From a virus (lineage: Duplodnaviria > Heunggongvirae > Uroviricota > Caudoviricetes), in IMG/VR virus record IMGVR_UViG_2711768001_000007: a stretch of DNA of 10,858 nt; one strand, given 5' to 3'. Below, one piece after another: positions 2,053 through 10,858 of this stretch (position 1 is its first letter; each line of letters begins with the position of its first letter). The notes beneath the pieces were generated by a model that saw only the letters and a list, made by a program, of their open reading frames with translations, had not been told where the DNA came from and ran no database searches. Both the position numbers and the translations under genes were made by a program.

Positions 2053-2166
2053 AGGGGAGCATATGACATATAAAACAAAGACGACCGGGGGCGGTCGCCA
2101 ATGGATACACACTAAACTTGAACGCATCACCAACAATGCCACATTTGCGGCTGGTGGGCAATGTGA

Positions 2167-2340
2167 TCAGTCAGATTTGGTTCGTTCCAAGGTTTGCAAC
2201 GAGAGCTTTTTCCTGTGCTCTTTAAGGAATTTCTCAAGAGCAAAAGCACATGGCGCGAATCTTTCTGATTCATGCTCTATCTTTCTGCGCCGTCTTTTCC
2301 GTGCCGGTGATAATGTTTTGGTCAATTCTTTATCGGTCAT
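2167..2340 (-). CDS. Small basic hypothetical protein (57 aa from Met-6; 62 aa if started at 2355)
   Basis: Minus-strand ORF 57 bp downstream of the RHH gene. AGGA lies 7 nt upstream of the ATG at 2340. Lys/Arg-rich (RKRRRRK). No recognised family. Confidence 0.4.
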   Translation of the reverse strand: MTDKELTKTLSPARKRRRRKIEHESERFAPCAFALEKFLKEHRKKLSLQTLERTKSD

Positions 2341-2397
2341 TGTGTTGTCCTGCATAGCAATGCGCCGTAGTTACTCACACCACGGCGCTGATAGTGA

Positions 2398-2595
2398 TTA
2401 TTCTGATTCTTTGGCCTTCCGGCGCTGTTCATATTTTAATTTGCGTCCACAGGCATCTAAGACCCATGCGGAAAAATTAGCACTAGGATTAGTTAATTTT
2501 TCTTGTTCAACGCTGGCATCAATCCCATCTATAAGCTCATGTGGGAATCGAATATTTTTCTTTGCTGATTTGTTGTTTGTGTTACCGCTAGACAT
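2398..2595 (-). CDS. Ribbon-helix-helix (Arc/MetJ/CopG-like) DNA-binding protein; candidate element repressor
   Basis: 65-aa ORF with strong RBS (GAGGTG 6 nt upstream). Segment IRFPHELIDGIDASVEQEKL...SANFSAWVLDA follows the P22 Arc pattern (FNLRWPREVLDLVRKVAEENGRSVNSEIYQRVMES, from memory). Sits divergently from an operator-bearing promoter region. Confidence 0.6.
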   Translation of the reverse strand: MSSGNTNNKSAKKNIRFPHELIDGIDASVEQEKLTNPSANFSAWVLDACGRKLKYEQRRKAKESE

Positions 2596-2622
2596 TGATG
2601 CACCTCACTTAAATGGACTTTA

Positions 2623-2702
2623 TGGGCGCACACAATACAGCAAAAAAAATGAGATGTTAAGTATTGACATGTGCGCACACATGATTTTAATCTGTGCGCA
2701 CA
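2623..2702. promoter_or_regulatory. Divergent promoter/operator region: TGGGCGCACA (2623-2632), TGTGCGCACA (2670-2679), TGTGCGCACA (2693-2702); rightward promoter -35 TTGACA 2664-2669 / -10 TTTAAT 2686-2691; leftward promoter -35 TGTTAA(rc) 2655-2660 / -10 ACAATA(rc) 2632-2637
   Basis: Two perfect 10-bp palindromes spaced 23 bp centre to centre, plus a 9/10 third copy 47 bp away. They overlap back-to-back sigma70-like hexamers with 16-17 bp spacers. Confidence 0.55.
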
Positions 2703-2800
2703 GTTTGAGTTTTGTCACTCAAATTAAGCAACGCCCCGCAGTGCTCGCAACACATGCAGGGCGTCTAACCACCAACGATAGCAAGAGTATCGAGGTAGCT

Positions 2801-3004
2801 ATGAGAAATCATACCACACACCCGCAAGGGCGGGACTCGCACAACCTGAATAAATATATCTGGCGTTTTATCGCCCTGAGCACGGCACAACCGCGCGTGA
2901 TTACCATTGAGGCCAGCAGCGAACAGGAAGCACGCCAGCAATCCCCGGCTGGCTGCGTGATGGTATTCGCCGCCCGTATTCGTCAGGGGGGGTACCATGC
3001 CTGA
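2801..3004 (+). CDS. Hypothetical small protein (68 aa), first ORF of the rightward early operon
   Basis: ATG 2801 preceded by GAGGT (2792-2796). In frame with the 3' end of the long track ORF 2063-3004. End overlaps the next ORF start. Low confidence. Confidence 0.3.
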   Translation: MRNHTTHPQGRDSHNLNKYIWRFIALSTAQPRVITIEASSEQEARQQSPAGCVMVFAARIRQGGYHA

Positions 3005-3623: not shown

Positions 3624-5437
3624 AAAAAGCGCCAAATTTAAAACACCAGCCGCGTGACAAAATGACGGAAGTCATCATTTTTGCGGGTAGTGATGCGTGG
3701 GCACATGCGAAGCAGTGGCAGGAACAGGACGGGCGACTGGCTGGCGATAACGTGCCACCTGTCTGGCTTGGAGAGCAACAACTTGCCGAACTGGACAACC
3801 TGCAAATCGTACCGGATGGACGCTATCGCGTGCGTCTCTACCAGGCGGGGTTATTGCGTCCGGGGCTTGTTAATACCATCGGGCAGAAACTGGCAGCGGC
3901 AGGTGTCAGGGATGCTGATTATTACCCTGAAGGAATGCACAGCCAGAAACGGGAGAACTGGCGCGAATATCTGGAACGTGAGCGGGGAGAGCTGACGGAA
4001 AAGAAAAAGGTAGTTGAACTGCCTGTAAAGAAAAAAGAGCGGGTAAAAGACGATAACGCTTCATCACTGGCGCTTAACCAGATGGGAGCAAGTCAACGCG
4101 GCGAAGTTCTCCTGGCACATTATGGCGGTGAACTGGCGATTCATGCCGACTCTGACACTGTTCACCATTACAACGGCGTTGTATGGGAGCCAGTACAGGA
4201 TAAAGAATTACAGCGAGCTATGGCGCAGATTTTCATTGATGCGGAGATCAGCTATTCGCAGAACGCCATTAAATCGGCGGTCGATACCATGAAGTTAAGT
4301 TTGCCTGTAATGGGGAATACAGCCCGTAACCTGATTGGATTCAGTAACGGGGTATTTGATACCAGAACAGGTAATTTTCGGCAGCATAACAAAAACGACT
4401 GGTTGTTAATTGCCAGTGAATTACCTTTCAGCCCACCAGCAGAGGGGGAAACGCTGGCAACACATGCGCCGAATTTCTGGAAGTGGTTACGCCGTTCGGT
4501 GGCTGAGAATGACCGCAAGGCGGATCGCGTACTGGCTGCATTATTCATGGTGCTGGCGAACCGGTACGACTGGCAGTTATTCATTGAGGTAACAGGTCCA
4601 GGGGGAAGTGGTAAAAGCGTGATGGCGGAGATTTGCACCATGCTGGCGGGTAAGGCTAATACAGTATCAGCGAGCATGAAGGCGCTGGAAGATGCAAGGG
4701 AACGCGCGTTAGTGGTTGGCTTTTCGCTGATTATCATGCCGGATATGACCCGCTACGCTGGTGATGGGGCGGGAATTAAGGCTATTACAGGCGGTGACAA
4801 GGTGGCAATCGACCCAAAACATAAAGCCCCATATTCAACGCGTATCCCGGCAGTAGTGCTGGCGGTTAACAATAACGCTATGTCATTCAGTGACCGCAGT
4901 GGGGGGATCTCGCGCCGTCGGGTGATATTCAATTTTTCGGAAGTTGTACCGGAGAACGAACGCGATTCAATGCTGGCGGAAAAAATAGAAGGTGAGCTGG
5001 CGGTAGTGATTCGTCATCTGCTTACACGGTTTGCTGACCAGGACGAAGCCAGACGCCTTTTATATGAGCAGCAGAAATCAGAAGAAGCACTCGCGATAAA
5101 GCGTGAAGGTGATTCGCTGGTGGACTTCTGCGGCTATCTCATGGCGTCGGTAATGTGTGATGGCCTGTTAGTGGGTAATGCTGAAATTGTGCCATTCAGC
5201 CCGCGCAGGTATCTCTATCATGCCTATCTGGCTTATATGAAGGCACATGGGTTTGGTAAACCTGTAACACTGACGCGCTTCGGTAAAGATATGCCGGGGG
5301 CAATGGCGGAATATGGCAGGGAGTATATGAAACGGAAAACGAAGCACGGTTTGCGTTCAAACGTGACACTGACGGAGGAATCAGAAGACTGGATGCCATC
5401 ATGTGTATCGGTCACTAATGACGATAGCAAAAATTAA
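3620..5437 (+). CDS. Replication initiator: D5_N-like region plus SF3-type P-loop helicase (P4-family primase C-terminal-like)
   Basis: Walker A GPGGSGKS and Walker B-like LIIMPDM. D5_N-like segment IGFSNGVFDTRTGNFRQH...LPFSP. Start taken at ATG 3620 (GGAGAG RBS) rather than GTG 3605. Iteron array begins 14 nt after the stop. Confidence 0.85.
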   Translation: MKKAPNLKHQPRDKMTEVIIFAGSDAWAHAKQWQEQDGRLAGDNVPPVWLGEQQLAELDNLQIVPDGRYRVRLYQAGLLRPGLVNTIGQKLAAAGVRDADYYPEGMHSQKRENWREYLERERGELTEKKKVVELPVKKKERVKDDNASSLALNQMGASQRGEVLLAHYGGELAIHADSDTVHHYNGVVWEPVQDKELQRAMAQIFIDAEISYSQNAIKSAVDTMKLSLPVMGNTARNLIGFSNGVFDTRTGNFRQHNKNDWLLIASELPFSPPAEGETLATHAPNFWKWLRRSVAENDRKADRVLAALFMVLANRYDWQLFIEVTGPGGSGKSVMAEICTMLAGKANTVSASMKALEDARERALVVGFSLIIMPDMTRYAGDGAGIKAITGGDKVAIDPKHKAPYSTRIPAVVLAVNNNAMSFSDRSGGISRRRVIFNFSEVVPENERDSMLAEKIEGELAVVIRHLLTRFADQDEARRLLYEQQKSEEALAIKREGDSLVDFCGYLMASVMCDGLLVGNAEIVPFSPRRYLYHAYLAYMKAHGFGKPVTLTRFGKDMPGAMAEYGREYMKRKTKHGLRSNVTLTEESEDWMPSCVSVTNDDSKN

Positions 5438-5450
5438 ACTTATGGAATAA

Positions 5451-5673
5451 CTGTTCACCACTGTTCACCCTGTTATAAATATCTTTTATATCAGTATATT
5501 ATAGGGTGAACAGTTATTTATGAACTGTTCACCAAACTATTCACTGTTCACCTTTTTGATTGTTTATTGAGCTTCAAGGGTGAACAGTGGTGAACAGTTG
5601 GTGAATAGTTTTTGTGAAACTGTTCACCCCTTAACATTATGAATTAAAAGATAAAATATCAAAAGGTGAACAG
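5451..5673. repeat. Iteron-type replication origin: about 9-10 copies of GGTGAACAG / CTGTTCACC in both orientations within AT-rich DNA
   Basis: Copies at 5451-5459, 5461-5469, 5505-5513, 5525-5533, 5544-5552, 5579-5587, 5589-5597, 5600-5608 (degenerate), 5620-5628, 5665-5673. The core matches the TGTTCACC type I iteron of the P4 ori/crr as I recall it. Confidence 0.8.
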
Positions 5674-5724
5674 GTGAAGGGTTAAAACGCAAAAATTTTA
5701 ATTTACTGCTGTGAGATAAAGCCT

Positions 5725-5970: not shown

Positions 5971-6389
5971 CAGCACAGATAGCGGCTTACGGGCGGCTGG
6001 TGGCTGACCCGCAGTTAAAGACCACCAGCAAGGGTACACAAATGACGATGGCGAGTATGGCGGTCCCACTTCCGTGCAGCCAGGCAGATGACGGAACGGC
6101 GACGATGTGGTTATCCGTCCTGGCGTTTGGCAGACAGGCCGAAGCACTGGCAAAGCACCGCAAGGGTGAACTCCTGAGCGTGGCGGGTAACATGCAGGTG
6201 AGCCAGTGGACCGGACAGAACGGGGAGACGCGGCAGGGCTGGCAGGTTATCGCAGACAGCGTAATCAGTGCGAGAACGGCGCGACCGGGCGGCAAAAAAG
6301 GCCAACAGGGGCAGGCTACTGATGCACTGAGCAGAGCAAAACAACAGGCGGGAAATGATGATCCGTACGGGGATAACATACCGTTTTAA
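5967..6389 (+). CDS. ssb: Single-stranded DNA-binding protein homolog (OB fold) with C-terminal acidic ...DNIPF tip
   Basis: 140-aa product aligns by eye with E. coli SSB: LSVLAFGRQAE vs HRVVLFGKLAE, VSQWTGQNGETRQ vs RTRKWTDQSGQDR, and C-terminal DDPYGDNIPF vs DFDDDIPF. Confidence 0.75.
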   Translation: MTAQIAAYGRLVADPQLKTTSKGTQMTMASMAVPLPCSQADDGTATMWLSVLAFGRQAEALAKHRKGELLSVAGNMQVSQWTGQNGETRQGWQVIADSVISARTARPGGKKGQQGQATDALSRAKQQAGNDDPYGDNIPF

Positions 6390-6403
6390 GCAACGAGTAA
6401 CAG

Positions 6404-6428
6404 AAGCCGGAGCAATCCGGCTTTTTTA
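6404..6428 (+). terminator. Rho-independent terminator-like hairpin after the SSB-like gene
   Basis: Stem AGCCGG (6405-6410) / CCGGCT (6417-6422), 6-nt loop, then T-run 6422-6427. Confidence 0.6.
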
Positions 6429-6497
6429 TGGGTCCTCCCGGTGTAGTGACCTGCCACGGGGCGGGAGCGTCGCGGAAAAAGGCTGGTTTTTGCATTT
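6429..6497 (+). repeat. Conserved ~70-bp element, copy 1 (about 92% identical to 8964-9035)
   Basis: GGGTCCTCCCGGTG...CCACGGGGCGGGAGCG.CGCGGAAAAAGGCT.GTTTTTGCATTTTCA. Internal dyad CTCCCG/CGGGAG and GGTG/CCAC. Differences between copies cluster in the putative loop. Confidence 0.7.
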
Positions 6498-6688
6498 TCA
6501 TGGCGGCGGCAGCATGTGTAGTAATTTATTGATAATTAAAAGTTATTTCTGTTTTCACCTGTACAATATTTTTTTCTCCCTGTCATTAGACCAGTTTGCA
6601 ATTAATTGAAATATATAAATAAATCTGTTTTTCACCTGCCAGGTGGAGTTGCCTGTGTCAAAACGTGTTCAGATGGCGGGATATTTAT

Positions 6689-6711
6689 GCCGGATTTTAT
6701 CCGGCTTTTTT
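6689..6711 (+). terminator. Rho-independent terminator-like hairpin in the AT-rich region before the capsid operon
   Basis: Stem GCCGGAT (6689-6695) / ATCCGGC (6699-6705), then 6 T. A 13-bp palindrome CACCTGcCAGGTG lies upstream at 6633-6645. Confidence 0.5.
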
Positions 6712-6813
6712 GTGTCTGAATCTCATTAATCTATTTTTATGATAGAAATATGTTTATCTACCACTTTTATCGATCAATAATGTGCACAGTTTAGTCAGTA
6801 AGAGGAAGTTACT

Positions 6814-7023
6814 GTGAGTTGTATTAATGACCTGAACACGGGCGATATCAGGGGTGGTTCCGTTCATCTGGATGCGCAGACCGTTATGCGCCTTAAGCAG
6901 TACAGGATCGACCATATAAATCATCATCCTGACCAACCATTACCAGGTGTGGCGCAGATTGTCAGACATGCCGTAAACACCTGGCTTAATCAGAATGGTT
7001 TTGCATCGGTGGGGGAACAATGA
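6814..7023 (+). CDS. Hypothetical small protein (69 aa), possibly RHH-like, translationally coupled to the protease-capsid gene
   Basis: GTG start 6814 with strong RBS AAGAGGA (6800-6806). Stop overlaps capsid start (ATGA 7020-7023). RHH assignment is a guess from a beta-strand then two-helix pattern. Confidence 0.45.
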   Translation: MSCINDLNTGDIRGGSVHLDAQTVMRLKQYRIDHINHHPDQPLPGVAQIVRHAVNTWLNQNGFASVGEQ

Positions 7024-8933
7024 ATCGCTGGTACACCATTAAGGCGGCGGATGTTCGCGGAGCGGCGGATATATCTATCTATGAGGAGATTGGCGGCTTC
7101 GGTGTTACTGCAAAGCAGTTCGCGGAAGACCTGAAAGCCCTTGGCGATGTTTCACATATCAATCTGAGGATCCATTCACCAGGTGGTGATGTGTTTGAAG
7201 GCATCGCCATCTATAACCTGCTACGGAATCATCCGGCAGACATTACGGTTTATATCGATGGTGTTGCGGCTTCAATGGCTTCGGTGGTCGCAATGGCTGG
7301 CGATCGTGTTGTGATGCCGGAAAACGCCATGATGATGATACATAAGCCGTGGGGTATCTCTGGCGGAAATGCTGGTGATATGCGTGATTATGCTGATTTG
7401 CTGGATAAGGTGGAAACCGTGTTAGTCCCTGCTTATGCCAGAAAAACGGGCAAATCAGCACAGGAAATTACCGCCATGCTGGAAGATGAAACCTGGATGG
7501 ACGGGAAAGAATGCCTTAAGCACGGTTTTGCTGATGAATTGTTGCCATCCGTCAGAGCAATGGCGCGAATTGAATCGAAGCGCACAGGAGATTTTTTACA
7601 TATGCCGGAAACCATTAAAGGAATGATTACACCGCCACAGGGAGCGGCAAATATTGCTGGTAATGAACAGAAACGCATCAATGGAATAAGTGAAGTGTTT
7701 AGCCTGTTCGGCAGTCGTTACGACGGGATCAAAATGGCGTGTCTGGAAGATGCATCATGTACACCGGAAATGGCCCGTGAAAAGCTGTTGAACGAGCTGG
7801 GGCGCGAGTCCACGCCATCCAATAAAAATACCCCGGCTCATATCTATGCCGGAAACGGAAACATAACAGGTGATGCAATTCGTCAGGGGCTTTATTCCCG
7901 TCTTGGGTATGAACGGCCTGAACGAGGCAACCCTTACGCGATGATGAGTCTTTTTGAAATGGCCCAGGCATCACTGGTTGATCGTGGTATCACTGTGAGC
8001 GGTTTTATTAATCGCTCGCAGGTTGTTAATGCGGCTTTTACACACAGCAGCAGTGATTTTTCTCATATTCTGGCTGGTGGGGCTGAAAAATCTGTACTGA
8101 AAGGCTGGCAGGACAGCGGCGAAACGTTCCAGAAATGGACGCGTACCGGTTCGCTTTCAAACTTTCATGAAGCAAAGCGCGTTGGTCTGAATGGTTTTTC
8201 AAAGCTGGATAAAGTACCGGAAGGTGCGGAATATAAATACATCACCACCAGCGATAAAGGTGTACCTATTGCGCTGGCCACGTACGGGAATATATTTTCC
8301 GTTACCCGTCAGGCCATTATCAACGATGACCTGACCCAGTTAACTACAATCCCCATGGCGATGGGACGCGCAGCTGCCAGAACAGTTGGCAATCTGGTTT
8401 ATCTCCTGTTAACCAGCAACGGCAAGTTTACGGATGGTAAAGCGTTATTCCATGCCGATCATAAAAATCTTATTGCGAAGGATATGGACATGGAGGGGCT
8501 TAACGAAGCCCGTAAGCTGATGCGCCTCCAGGAAGACGCTAACGGCGATTCGCTGAATATTACCCCTGCATTTGTCCTGGTCCCCGCCGCGCTGGAGTCT
8601 GCCGCACATCGCGCCATTCTGTCATCGTCATCACTCTTTCCGGTTGATGGCGTGGGCACTATCAATCAGAACCCCGGCATCATTAACGTGGTGAAAGATA
8701 TGGCGGAGGTAATCGTTGAGCCACGTCTTGATAAAGCCAATAACAAGGAGTGGTATGTGGCAGCGGCGAAGGGTATGGACACGATAGAGGTCGCTTATCT
8801 TGATGGTATTGATACGCCATATCTTGAGGAGCAGGAGGGCTTTACTGTTGATGGCGTCGCCTGGAAGGTGCGCATAGATGCAGGTGTCGCGGCCCTCGAC
8901 TATCGCGGATTACTGAAATCGAGTGGAGCATGA
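7020..8933 (+). CDS. Fusion protein: N-terminal ClpP-family prohead protease plus C-terminal probable phage major capsid protein
   Basis: N-terminal ~190 aa align with ClpP: IHSPGGDV vs INSPGGVI, GVAASMAS vs GQAASMGA (catalytic Ser), MIHKPW vs MIHQP (catalytic His). The C-terminal ~440 aa have capsid-like character (ending ...GVAALDYRG); that part is a judgement call. Confidence 0.8.
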   Translation: MNRWYTIKAADVRGAADISIYEEIGGFGVTAKQFAEDLKALGDVSHINLRIHSPGGDVFEGIAIYNLLRNHPADITVYIDGVAASMASVVAMAGDRVVMPENAMMMIHKPWGISGGNAGDMRDYADLLDKVETVLVPAYARKTGKSAQEITAMLEDETWMDGKECLKHGFADELLPSVRAMARIESKRTGDFLHMPETIKGMITPPQGAANIAGNEQKRINGISEVFSLFGSRYDGIKMACLEDASCTPEMAREKLLNELGRESTPSNKNTPAHIYAGNGNITGDAIRQGLYSRLGYERPERGNPYAMMSLFEMAQASLVDRGITVSGFINRSQVVNAAFTHSSSDFSHILAGGAEKSVLKGWQDSGETFQKWTRTGSLSNFHEAKRVGLNGFSKLDKVPEGAEYKYITTSDKGVPIALATYGNIFSVTRQAIINDDLTQLTTIPMAMGRAAARTVGNLVYLLLTSNGKFTDGKALFHADHKNLIAKDMDMEGLNEARKLMRLQEDANGDSLNITPAFVLVPAALESAAHRAILSSSSLFPVDGVGTINQNPGIINVVKDMAEVIVEPRLDKANNKEWYVAAAKGMDTIEVAYLDGIDTPYLEEQEGFTVDGVAWKVRIDAGVAALDYRGLLKSSGA

Positions 8934-8937
8934 CAAC

Positions 8938-8963
8938 AAGGGCGGCGATAGCCGCCTTTTTTT
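8938..8963 (+). terminator. GC hairpin plus T-run after the capsid gene; terminator-like, and also contains a 9-nt match to lambda cosN
   Basis: Stem GGCGGC (8941-8946) / GCCGCC (8951-8956), loop GATA, T-run 8957-8963. GGGCGGCGA (8940-8948) matches the first 9 nt of lambda cosN GGGCGGCGACCT as I recall it. Confidence 0.5.
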
Positions 8964-9035
8964 ACGGGTCCTCCCGGTGGGGTGGTCTGCCACGGGGCGG
9001 GAGCGGCGCGGAAAAAGGCTAGTTTTTGCATTTTC
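8964..9035 (+). repeat. Conserved ~70-bp element, copy 2 (about 92% identical to 6429-6497)
   Basis: See copy 1. Same position relative to a GC hairpin plus T-run. Confidence 0.7.
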
Positions 9036-9190
9036 ATTCGTCATCATCATCTTTCTATAATGTTGAATTTTAAGTGTTTTTATTTTTGGTATGTTAATTT
9101 TGCTTATTTTGTGTTCAACATACAGCGCGTTTTTTGACCTTTTTTAAAAGATATTTGCAAGATGCATTTTTAAAACATTCTGGAGCGGGT

Positions 9191-9676
9191 ATGGATCGGG
9201 AACTGAAAAATCTGATGCTGAACATTAACCAGCTGGCGGCGATAGCGGGAATATGTCGCCAGACTGCGGCGGCAAGGCTGAAAAATATCCAGCCAGCCGG
9301 AGGACATGACAAGCTGAAACTCTATCGGGTGACTGACATTCTGACTTGTTTTCTTGATCTTCCCGTTCCGGCATCACTGGAAGAAATGGAGCCACACGAC
9401 CGTAAGGCCTGGTATCAGTCCGAACGTGAGCGCCTCAAGTTCGAACAGGAAACGGCGCAACTCATACCCGCCGATGATGTGCGAAAAGAGATGGCTATAT
9501 GGGGAGAAATCGTAAGCGAGGAACTGGAAAAACTCCCCAGTATTCTGGCACGTGATGTTGGGCTTAAACCGATGGCAGTAAACAGAGTGCAGTCAATTAT
9601 TGACGATTTGTGTAATCAGATTATCAGCCGGATGGTAAAAAATGACGTAGTGAATGAGGTCGCAAAACAGGCATGA
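9191..9676 (+). CDS. Terminase small subunit, lambda Nu1-like
   Basis: From ATG 9191 (GGAG RBS 9183-9186). NQLAAIAGICRQTAAARLKNIQPAGGHDKLKLYRVTDIL parallels lambda Nu1 KKQLADIFGASIRTIQNWQEQGMPVLRGGGKGNEVLYDSAAVI (from memory). The track ORF starts at TTG 9134, which I consider less likely. Confidence 0.7.
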   Translation: MDRELKNLMLNINQLAAIAGICRQTAAARLKNIQPAGGHDKLKLYRVTDILTCFLDLPVPASLEEMEPHDRKAWYQSERERLKFEQETAQLIPADDVRKEMAIWGEIVSEELEKLPSILARDVGLKPMAVNRVQSIIDDLCNQIISRMVKNDVVNEVAKQA

Positions 9677-10660: not shown

Positions 10661-10717
10661 TTGTTCGTGGTTGTTCGATATTGTTCGTGGAACGGTGTAG
10701 TTAATGGTGTAGTTAAT
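10661..10717. promoter_or_regulatory. Putative integrase arm-type sites at the right end: three 10-bp-phased TTGTTCG decamers (10661-10690) and tandem GGTGTAGTTAAT x2 (10694-10717)
   Basis: Mirror of the motif content at 91-164, same orientation, about 70 bp inside the right terminal repeat. Confidence 0.4.
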
Positions 10718-10788
10718 TTTACTGTTTTTGACGAGCTTATTGTTTGCAACTCAATGAAAAATAAAGGCTAATAAGCCAAATACTATAA

Positions 10789-10858
10789 ATGATAGTTATT
10801 TATCATCTAGTGTTCGCGGGTGTTCGTGGTAGTGTTTTGTGTGCATTCATCGCTATGA
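10789..10858. repeat. Right terminal direct repeat, 70 bp, identical to 1-70; putative att core (attR side)
   Basis: Exact identity to 1-70. Confidence 0.8.

Follow-up and report, generated by a model that had tools for sequence, protein, structure and literature searches.

The window, by which we mean the whole 10,858-nt stretch of DNA analysed here, contains an island whose genes follow the order int, alpA, Icd-like, DUF4222, primase, SSB, small ORF, capsid, TerS or Rpp, p95, as they do in EcCICFT073, the model Gram-negative phage-inducible chromosomal island (PICI), which was located in the CFT073 chromosome. In E. coli STN0717-20 this island is located between cspD/yljB and clpS. It includes an integrase, AlpA, a D5-type primase and SSB, has a size of 10.8 kb and carries an incomplete set of virion genes, all of which are properties of PICIs; terL, portal and tail genes are absent from the window. 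The capsid gene encodes a fusion of a ClpP-like prohead protease with a major capsid protein, 56–57% identical to its homologues in helper-type phages. It is preceded by the gene for a small island protein and followed by that for a homologue of the terminase small subunit TerS (Table 1). Other assignments were considered and rejected. A capsid-forming PICI (cf-PICI), which would encode capsid, protease, portal, TerS, TerL and head-tail connectors, was rejected since of these only the protease-capsid fusion and TerS are present, with no terL or portal match in the window, and a P4-like satellite was rejected on gene content. By its sequence, the gene behind the second repeat copy described below is not that of a Rpp-type redirection protein (139–154 aa): it encodes a phrog_141/DUF1441 TerS homologue. 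Compared with solved structures, including RppC, the DUF1441 protein gave no sequence match at E<=10.

Several other features concern the island as a whole. Positions 1–70 and 10789–10858 of the window are identical over 70 nt and are probably attL/attR core repeats, or else a circular overlap; the AP022482 chromosome matches the window up to position 10806 only. Just inside these ends are two 60-nt repeats (105–164 and 10661–10720, 78% identical) in which TTGTTCG and GGTGTAGTTAAT motifs abound and which resemble integrase arm-type sites. Immediately behind the primase gene, at 5436–5680, dense direct and inverted repeats of the GGTGAACAG type (D5, D7, D13; I1, I2, I7, I9, I11) probably form the replication origin of the island, as described for PICIs. 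A 313-aa ORF (2063–3004) corresponds in RefSeq to a truncated pseudogene and a separate Icd-like gene, with YlcI/YnfO on the opposite strand, and its PHROG match (transcriptional repressor/Icd-like family) is limited to the C-terminal 90 residues.

Table 1. Coordinates of the features discussed, as positions in the window
Feature	Position	Strand	Description and basis
Predicted ssb terminator	6404..6427	+	stem AAGCCGGA / TCCGGCTT, loop GCAA, T6; -13 kcal/mol, z -4.5
cos1 shared core	6422..6501	+	T-run, cosQ, spacer, cosN, proximal segment to +43; repeat and lambda/cdtI alignment
cos1 cosQ	6430..6436	+	GGGTCCT, equal to lambda cosQ; 22 nt before cosN (lambda 23 nt)
cos1 cosN	6459..6470	+	predicted 12-nt cohesive end GGGCGGGAGCGT; flanks ACG, CGCGG; start of cdtI/Tritos records
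cos1 cosB, putative, cdtI/HannyBb type	6502..6663	+	ends in vestigial terS start (~7 codons from 6643); 97% to cdtI-type over +44..+150
Candidate TerS-binding repeat, copy 1 of 2	6552..6561	+	TTTTCACCTG; motif count
Candidate TerS-binding repeat, copy 2 of 2	6629..6638	+	TTTTCACCTG; motif count
Second hairpin and T-run, end of cos1 cassette	6689..6711	+	terminator scan; close likeness to ssb terminator
69-aa island protein, upstream of capsid gene	6814..7023	+	phrog_4934; homologues at same position in L008, EcCICFT073
ClpP-like prohead protease/major capsid fusion	7020..8933	+	Pfam Phage_capsid_4 1.4e-53, CLP_protease 1.9e-35
Predicted capsid terminator	8938..8963	+	stem AAGGGCGGC / GCCGCCTTT, loop GATA, T7; -15.7 kcal/mol, z -3.7
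Coincidental 9-mer in 5' arm of capsid terminator	8940-8948	+	GGGCGGCGA; sequence
cos2 shared core	8958..9037	+	repeat and lambda/cdtI alignment
cos2 cosQ	8966..8972	+	GGGTCCT, exact heptamer, 22 nt before cosN
cos2 cosN, predicted	8995..9006	+	GGGCGGGAGCGG; position 12 G here, T in strain AP022482; phages have both
cos2 cosB, putative, L074/mEp460-related type	9038..9190	+	80% to phage L074; L057 cos2 99% identical
Island TerS homologue (DUF1441)	9191..9676	+	Pfam DUF1441 3.3e-35; phrog_141 'terminase small subunit' 5e-57

Predicted terminator hairpins and the repeated element

The ssb gene stops at 6389 and a hairpin begins 15 nt after; the capsid gene stops at 8933 and is followed after 5 nt by another. 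Both are placed at gene 3' ends and have the 8–9 bp stems followed by a T-run (T6 and T7) expected of intrinsic terminators, and they are likely to be separate terminators, one of the ssb operon and one of the capsid gene. A terminator scan of the + strand missed both, probably because greedy stem extension consumed the T-run, and sequence together with fold z-scores was used instead. The ssb hairpin is also found behind ssb in the islands L008, L022, L057, L059 and L120 and behind ssb/perC in EcCICFT073. The stem of the capsid terminator is kept after the capsid gene in all relatives, with a loop that varies (GATA, ACCA, GAAA or AGCA).

The hairpins are each followed by one copy of a direct repeat of 80 nt (6422–6501 and 8958–9037), identical at 73/80 positions (91%), for which our own estimate of chance occurrence in 10.8 kb is below 1e-20. 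Four of the seven mismatches are located between cosQ and cosN (see below). An earlier note on this DNA had described an element of this kind, duplicated after ssb and after the capsid gene with a hairpin and T-run before each copy, and in this it was right. It had also read the different stems of the two hairpins as compensatory changes that preserve one structure. This does not hold: the hairpins are not homologous, and each is kept at its own position in relatives with an invariant stem and a variable loop. As they are unrelated and each conserved in position, there is therefore no compensatory evolution between them. Nor are the two copies a recent segmental duplication lacking a conserved position, the outcome which the note had named as fatal to its proposal. 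Both positions are conserved in divergent relatives, and the conservation of each terminator at its own place rules out a recent private duplication. A small ORF of 34 aa (6428–6532) was rejected as an explanation of the repeat: its ATG reads ACG in the second copy, so the repeat is not coding.

The repeat as a predicted cos site

Both copies are in register with lambda cos, base by base, in a printed alignment that includes the joined ends of lambda and cdtI, HannyBb and PhiR40_1. The predicted cosN of the first copy (cos1), GGGCGGGAGCGT, equals that of lambda, GGGCGGCGACCT, at 9/12 positions, and the flanks ACG and CGCGG are conserved in both copies. The genome records of cdtI and Tritos, as deposited, have as their first base the equivalent of window position 6459, the predicted start of cosN. 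A sensitive BLAST search with copy 1 against phage records identified 25 lambdoid phages that match the 70–80-nt core. In a set of 105 phage loci, gathered from IMG/VR with a degenerate cosQ–cosN pattern, the core is present once per phage, directly upstream of terS-terL-portal-protease/capsid. Since there is one core per phage and it is in register with the lambda cos landmarks, we conclude from the sequence that the 80-bp repeat is a DNA packaging signal, the core of a lambda-type cos, rather than a structured RNA. By analogy with lambda, the cosQ–cosN core would be the part that TerL cuts and that serves in termination. The two sites, cos1 and cos2, have the same orientation and lie 2536 bp from each other, with the capsid gene of the island between them.

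A TerS-binding site was among the functions that the earlier note had proposed for the repeat. The repeat does belong to a packaging, terminase-related site, but what is repeated is cosQ–cosN, and the putative TerS-binding cosB lies downstream and differs between the copies. The cosN-like 9-mer said to be carried by the second copy only, GGGCGGCGA, turned out to be the 5' arm of the capsid terminator, and a cosN is present in both copies. Taken together, the gene content and the cos landmarks make it likely, with a probability of about 85%, that the window is a 10.8-kb Gram-negative PICI packaged by the terminase of a lambdoid helper, and that the cosQ–cosN core is present in it as two direct copies, one before and one after the capsid gene.

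It is very improbable that the core is instead a structured RNA (a tandem terminator, a processing site or the target of a late regulator) with structure-preserving changes. Hairpin and core together fold somewhat beyond shuffled sequences (z -2.3 and -2.5), but this signal comes entirely from the terminator hairpins; the 70-nt cores have ordinary energies (z -1.0 and -1.15) and minimum-energy folds that differ between the two copies. Part of the internal dyad seen in the earlier note is real, in that 6-bp outer arms CTCCCG/CGGGAG exist in this cos type and can pair, but nothing else of it does. Among 41 distinct cores, 82.9% of cells pair in the most favourable structure compared with 82.3% in shuffles, both sides have changed in only 7/645 cells and several pairs are broken in 9–23 sequences, a covariation count that is unconvincing for a conserved structured element. 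The same sequence, moreover, appears to form the physical ends of phage genomes. An Rfam scan of the whole window found no family above its gathering score. The weak match to ST7-OT4_3 (window 8810–9113; E 0.018; 25.5 bits, where the gathering score is 50) was dismissed as a compositional artefact, this being a vertebrate lncRNA model without base pairs.

Position 12 of the cos2 cosN is G in the window (8995–9006) and T in the near-identical island of STN0717-20 (L007 11995–12006). Among phages G at this position is of the mEp460 type, and both variants are known there. With G in cos2, the window molecule cut at cos2 and cos1 would have cohesive ends with one terminal mismatch. When the literature was searched for the cosN and cosQ sequences, only unrelated papers came up.

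cosB regions, known systems and related islands

Homology between the two copies ends at +43 from the first base of cosN, and the sequences diverge from +44; in lambda the critical TerS-binding site R3 is at bp 50–65 (PMC9026076). Each of the putative cosB regions has motif repeats that are confined to it, and their role in binding is that of a candidate only. The sequence TTTTCACCTG occurs twice in the window (0.04 expected), both times in the cos1 cosB, and likewise twice in the cosB of cdtI. The cos2 cosB carries ATGTTRAW three times within a 62-nt stretch (9060–9067, 9091–9098 and, inverted, 9114–9121), with no other match in the window. At cos1 the phage homology stops just past the TerS start codon, leaving a truncated terS of ~7 codons. 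From cos2 onward an R40-like cosB and then terS follow in the printed alignment, and the distance from cosN to terS is 197 nt, similar to that in cdtI (185 nt) and lambda (191 nt). It is the putative region of TerS-binding specificity that differs between the two copies.

The island TerS is 68–71% identical to that of PhiR40_1 and 24% identical to Nu1, and its N-terminal DNA-binding part is nearly identical to that of the TerS of phage L074. Its C-terminal half is island-specific: compared with L074, L003 and L019 it ends ...VKNDVVNEVAKQA, without the acidic tail. The C-terminal half of the phage proteins, by contrast, is almost identical across three lineages. This hints at an altered interaction with TerL and possibly at a Rpp-like interfering role.

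The cos1 site and its cosB form a cassette bracketed by near-identical terminator hairpins, which include a 16-nt direct repeat (6415–6430 and 6699–6714, 94% identical) of sequence ATCCGGCTTTTTT(A/G)TG. In EcCICFT073 the same hairpin follows ssb/perC without a cos behind it. These observations suggest the hairpin as the point at which the cos1 cassette entered the island, or at which it can be removed.

Two cos sites in a PICI have already been published, for EcCICFT073 (Fillol-Salom et al. 2018, PMC6092414, and 2019, PMC6739421; Murialdo and Feiss 2022, PMC9026076), and pirated cos sites are established. In that island both sites are functional in plasmid assays, cos1 is needed for transfer and deletion of cos2 raises transfer (PMC6092414, PMC6739421). 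EcCICFT073 is of the same island family as the window and has the same gene order, with two cos sites whose cosQ and cosN are helper-like but whose cosB regions differ. One of these sites lies directly upstream of a gene for a small winged-helix DNA-binding protein, which is how cos and terS are arranged in phages. Before the cos1 of EcCICFT073 stand an identical terminator hairpin and an identical hairpin-cosQ junction, GCCGGAGAAATCCGGCTTTTTTTATGGGTCCT; the hairpin-T-run-ATGGGTCCT junction is the same as that before the window cos1. In contrast, the EcCICFT073 sites are lambda-type (cosN GGGCGGCGACCT), lie ~750 bp apart around rppA and are inverted (L013 32497–32600 on the + strand and ~33340–33260 on the - strand; NC_004431 1387496–1388340), an orientation that the accessible portions of the published text leave unstated. 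Those of the window are of the cdtI/mEp460 type, direct and, at a distance of 2536 bp, placed around the capsid gene; both of their cosB regions resemble true phage cosB regions, and a full TerS homologue takes the place of Rpp. What appears to be new relative to the known system is therefore this cos class, the direct sites around a capsid gene, the two phage-like cosB regions and TerS in place of Rpp.

Compared with lambda, the window sites share the exact cosQ GGGTCCT, a spacer of similar length (22 nt, 23 nt in lambda), the flanks ACG and CGCGG and a terS ~190 nt further on. They differ in the sequence of the cohesive end, in a cosB that is unrelated in sequence and paired with a DUF1441-type TerS, and in that the site occurs twice in one replicon. 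The cos1 site is essentially the cos of cdtI, HannyBb and Tritos, with a cosB 97% identical. The cos2 core equals that of the mEp460 type, G at cosN position 12 included, and its cosB is closest to that of the IMG/VR phage L074. Lambdoid phages have a single site before terS-terL-portal-capsid, whereas the island has lost terS behind cos1 and carries neither terL nor portal. SaPIbov5 is likewise a satellite with a helper cos site and a capsid-protein homologue, and SaPIbov4, for which two putative cos sites are reported, is cited as a second two-cos case. The staphylococcal cos-type islands differ in their unrelated cos sequence and helper family, a distinction drawn from their description. 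Lambda cos-duplication phages also carry two direct cos sites in one replicon, and cos-to-cos packaging or recombination removes the segment between them; these phages are laboratory constructs, whereas the island duplication is natural and stably kept.

The segment ssb-cos1-capsid-cos2-terS is almost intact in at least 184 of 5426 complete E. coli genomes; a search of genome contigs for primase relatives yielded 2 loci. Two direct cos sites around the capsid gene were found in at least 14 related islands, which fall into two lineages: A (the window, L007, L022, L057 and L120) and B (L008, L028, L031, L036, L059, L066, L080, L105 and L107), the latter without a TerS gene and with a capsid protein only 62% identical. 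Across the dual-cos islands identity is 21–100% for the integrase and 62–99% for the capsid protein. Within a single island, in both lineages, the two cores are 84–93% identical and the two cosB regions 25–67%. The two cosB regions of an island resemble different phage classes, which in lineage B are the L025 type and the L011/O157 type. L008 is an O157 island located in a helper terL; its cos2, cosB included, is a close match to the cos site of the prophage around it.

Some islands have one site only, cos2 in L009 and L109 and the post-ssb site in L033, L037 and L068. In L033 (7341 nt; 6345–6420) int, pri and ssb are 99–100% identical to those of the window, the capsid gene is absent and there is one hybrid cos, made up of cos1 sequence before cosN and cos2 sequence behind it and followed by terS. 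The capsid-less L037 and L068 have similar hybrid joints with another cosB; across these three relatives the downstream half is cos2-type or mEp460-type. The L033 hybrid would be the product expected from cos2-to-cos1 packaging or from recombination between the repeats, and by analogy it looks like the deletion product of a cos-duplication phage. The contiguous capsid-less junction is present in 2 of 5426 complete E. coli genomes; the dual arrangement is therefore stably kept.

The post-ssb cos of L008 (8283–8350), L031, L059, L066, L080 and L107 has the cosQ AGGTACT in place of GGGTCCT and a variant cosN; in L036 and L105 the cosQ at this site is intact. By the rules known for lambda, a cos without cosQ could allow packaging to start there but not to end, so that premature termination at cos1 would be prevented.

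Proposed packaging and the possible role of the second site

On the model of lambda and EcCICFT073, the induced island would replicate as concatemers, and TerS bound to cosB would, again by analogy, position the helper TerL to nick cosN. TerS would be supplied at cos1 by a cdtI-type helper and at cos2 by the island itself or by a helper of the L074/mEp460 type. DNA would then be packaged rightwards, towards cosB, and packaging would stop at a later cosQ–cosN when the head is full. With a unit of 10,788 bp, four units of the island make 43.2 kb, which fits helper genomes of 42–47 kb, as judged by record lengths; two sites per unit add possible packaged lengths of 40.6 kb from cos2 to cos1 and of 45.7 kb from cos1 to cos2. 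Of the two, cos2 together with the island TerS appears to be the most phage-like initiation module, and by analogy both sites may be functional. The different cosB alleles would permit packaging by two TerS specificity classes of helpers with a common TerL/cosN class.

This raises the question of why two sites are kept. They may represent an adaptive design with one site for each helper TerS-domain/cosB allele, among helpers that share a TerL/cosN class as do lambda and phage 21, the pairs being cdtI-type with L074/mEp460-type in the window and L025-type with L011-type in O157. We put this forward tentatively. Several observations stand against packaging by cos sites as the best explanation: one cos of EcCICFT073 is dispensable and its deletion raises transfer, islands exist with cos2 only (L009, L109) or the post-ssb site only (L033, L037, L068), most lineage-B copies of cos1 have the degenerate cosQ AGGTACT, L105 lies in a cdtI-type helper with neither cosB of that type, and the high identity of the cos1 cosB to phage could result from recent recombination, not selection. 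It is also conceivable, at the level of a possibility rather than a probability, that cos2 and the island TerS work alone and that cos1 is a non-functional or counter-productive remnant of a cdtI-type recombination, recent or neutral. The increased transfer of the EcCICFT073 cos2 deletion means that a second cos need not help, and the terS cut down to ~7 codons, the position of the cassette between near-identical hairpins, like an insertion scar, the lack of cos1 in L009 and L109 and the often mutated cosQ of lineage B all point the same way. Yet at least 14 islands that differ in integrase and capsid variant retain a post-ssb cos, and neither cosN and cosQ nor the repeated TTTTCACCTG motifs are damaged in the window. 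In addition, the cos1 cosB is 97% identical to phage even in L057, whose proteins are 85–95% identical to those of the window, and deletions that remove the capsid module are rare (2 genomes against 184).

The direct sites could, alternatively, mainly define a removable capsid cassette, cutting from cos2 to cos1 or recombination between the repeats giving an 8.25-kb capsid-less form and hence two genome forms. The arrangement int-pri-ssb-hybrid cos-terS of L033 is exactly the joint that this predicts, and L037 and L068 have similar hybrid joints with other cosB regions. The contiguous capsid-less junction is, however, so rare (2/5426 complete E. coli genomes, when 184 have the whole arrangement) that it would seem to be a by-product formed now and then, not what the arrangement is for, and we regard this explanation as improbable.

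If the two sites are indeed an adaptive design, the helper range for packaging would be doubled, and the placement of the sites before and after the capsid gene would in addition decide in what forms the genome can be packaged. Should each site serve its own helper class, this would explain why a second cos is kept, a question left open by the EcCICFT073 cos2 deletion, and would make helper range predictable from sequence. PICIs spread virulence and defence genes, and the packaging signals they carry determine their host and helper range. The sites described here add a variant of pirated and dual cos and no new principle.

Some of the relatives are located within other elements. L031 (9991 nt) has three cos sites, at ~684, 6165 and 8682, and appears to be a composite in which a lineage-B island lies inside a lineage-A island, by its protease/capsid gene. 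This agrees with earlier work (PMC10111431) describing helper-embedded PICIs whose target is the ClpP-protease site in a second PICI. The islands L008 (O157:H7 Z1835), L022 and L105 each lie within a lambdoid prophage, in its terL or terS region, and are thus helper-embedded PICIs. Although the helper around L105 is cdtI-type, both cosB regions of this island are of other types, a case that departs from a simple rule that the cosB of an island matches its resident helper.
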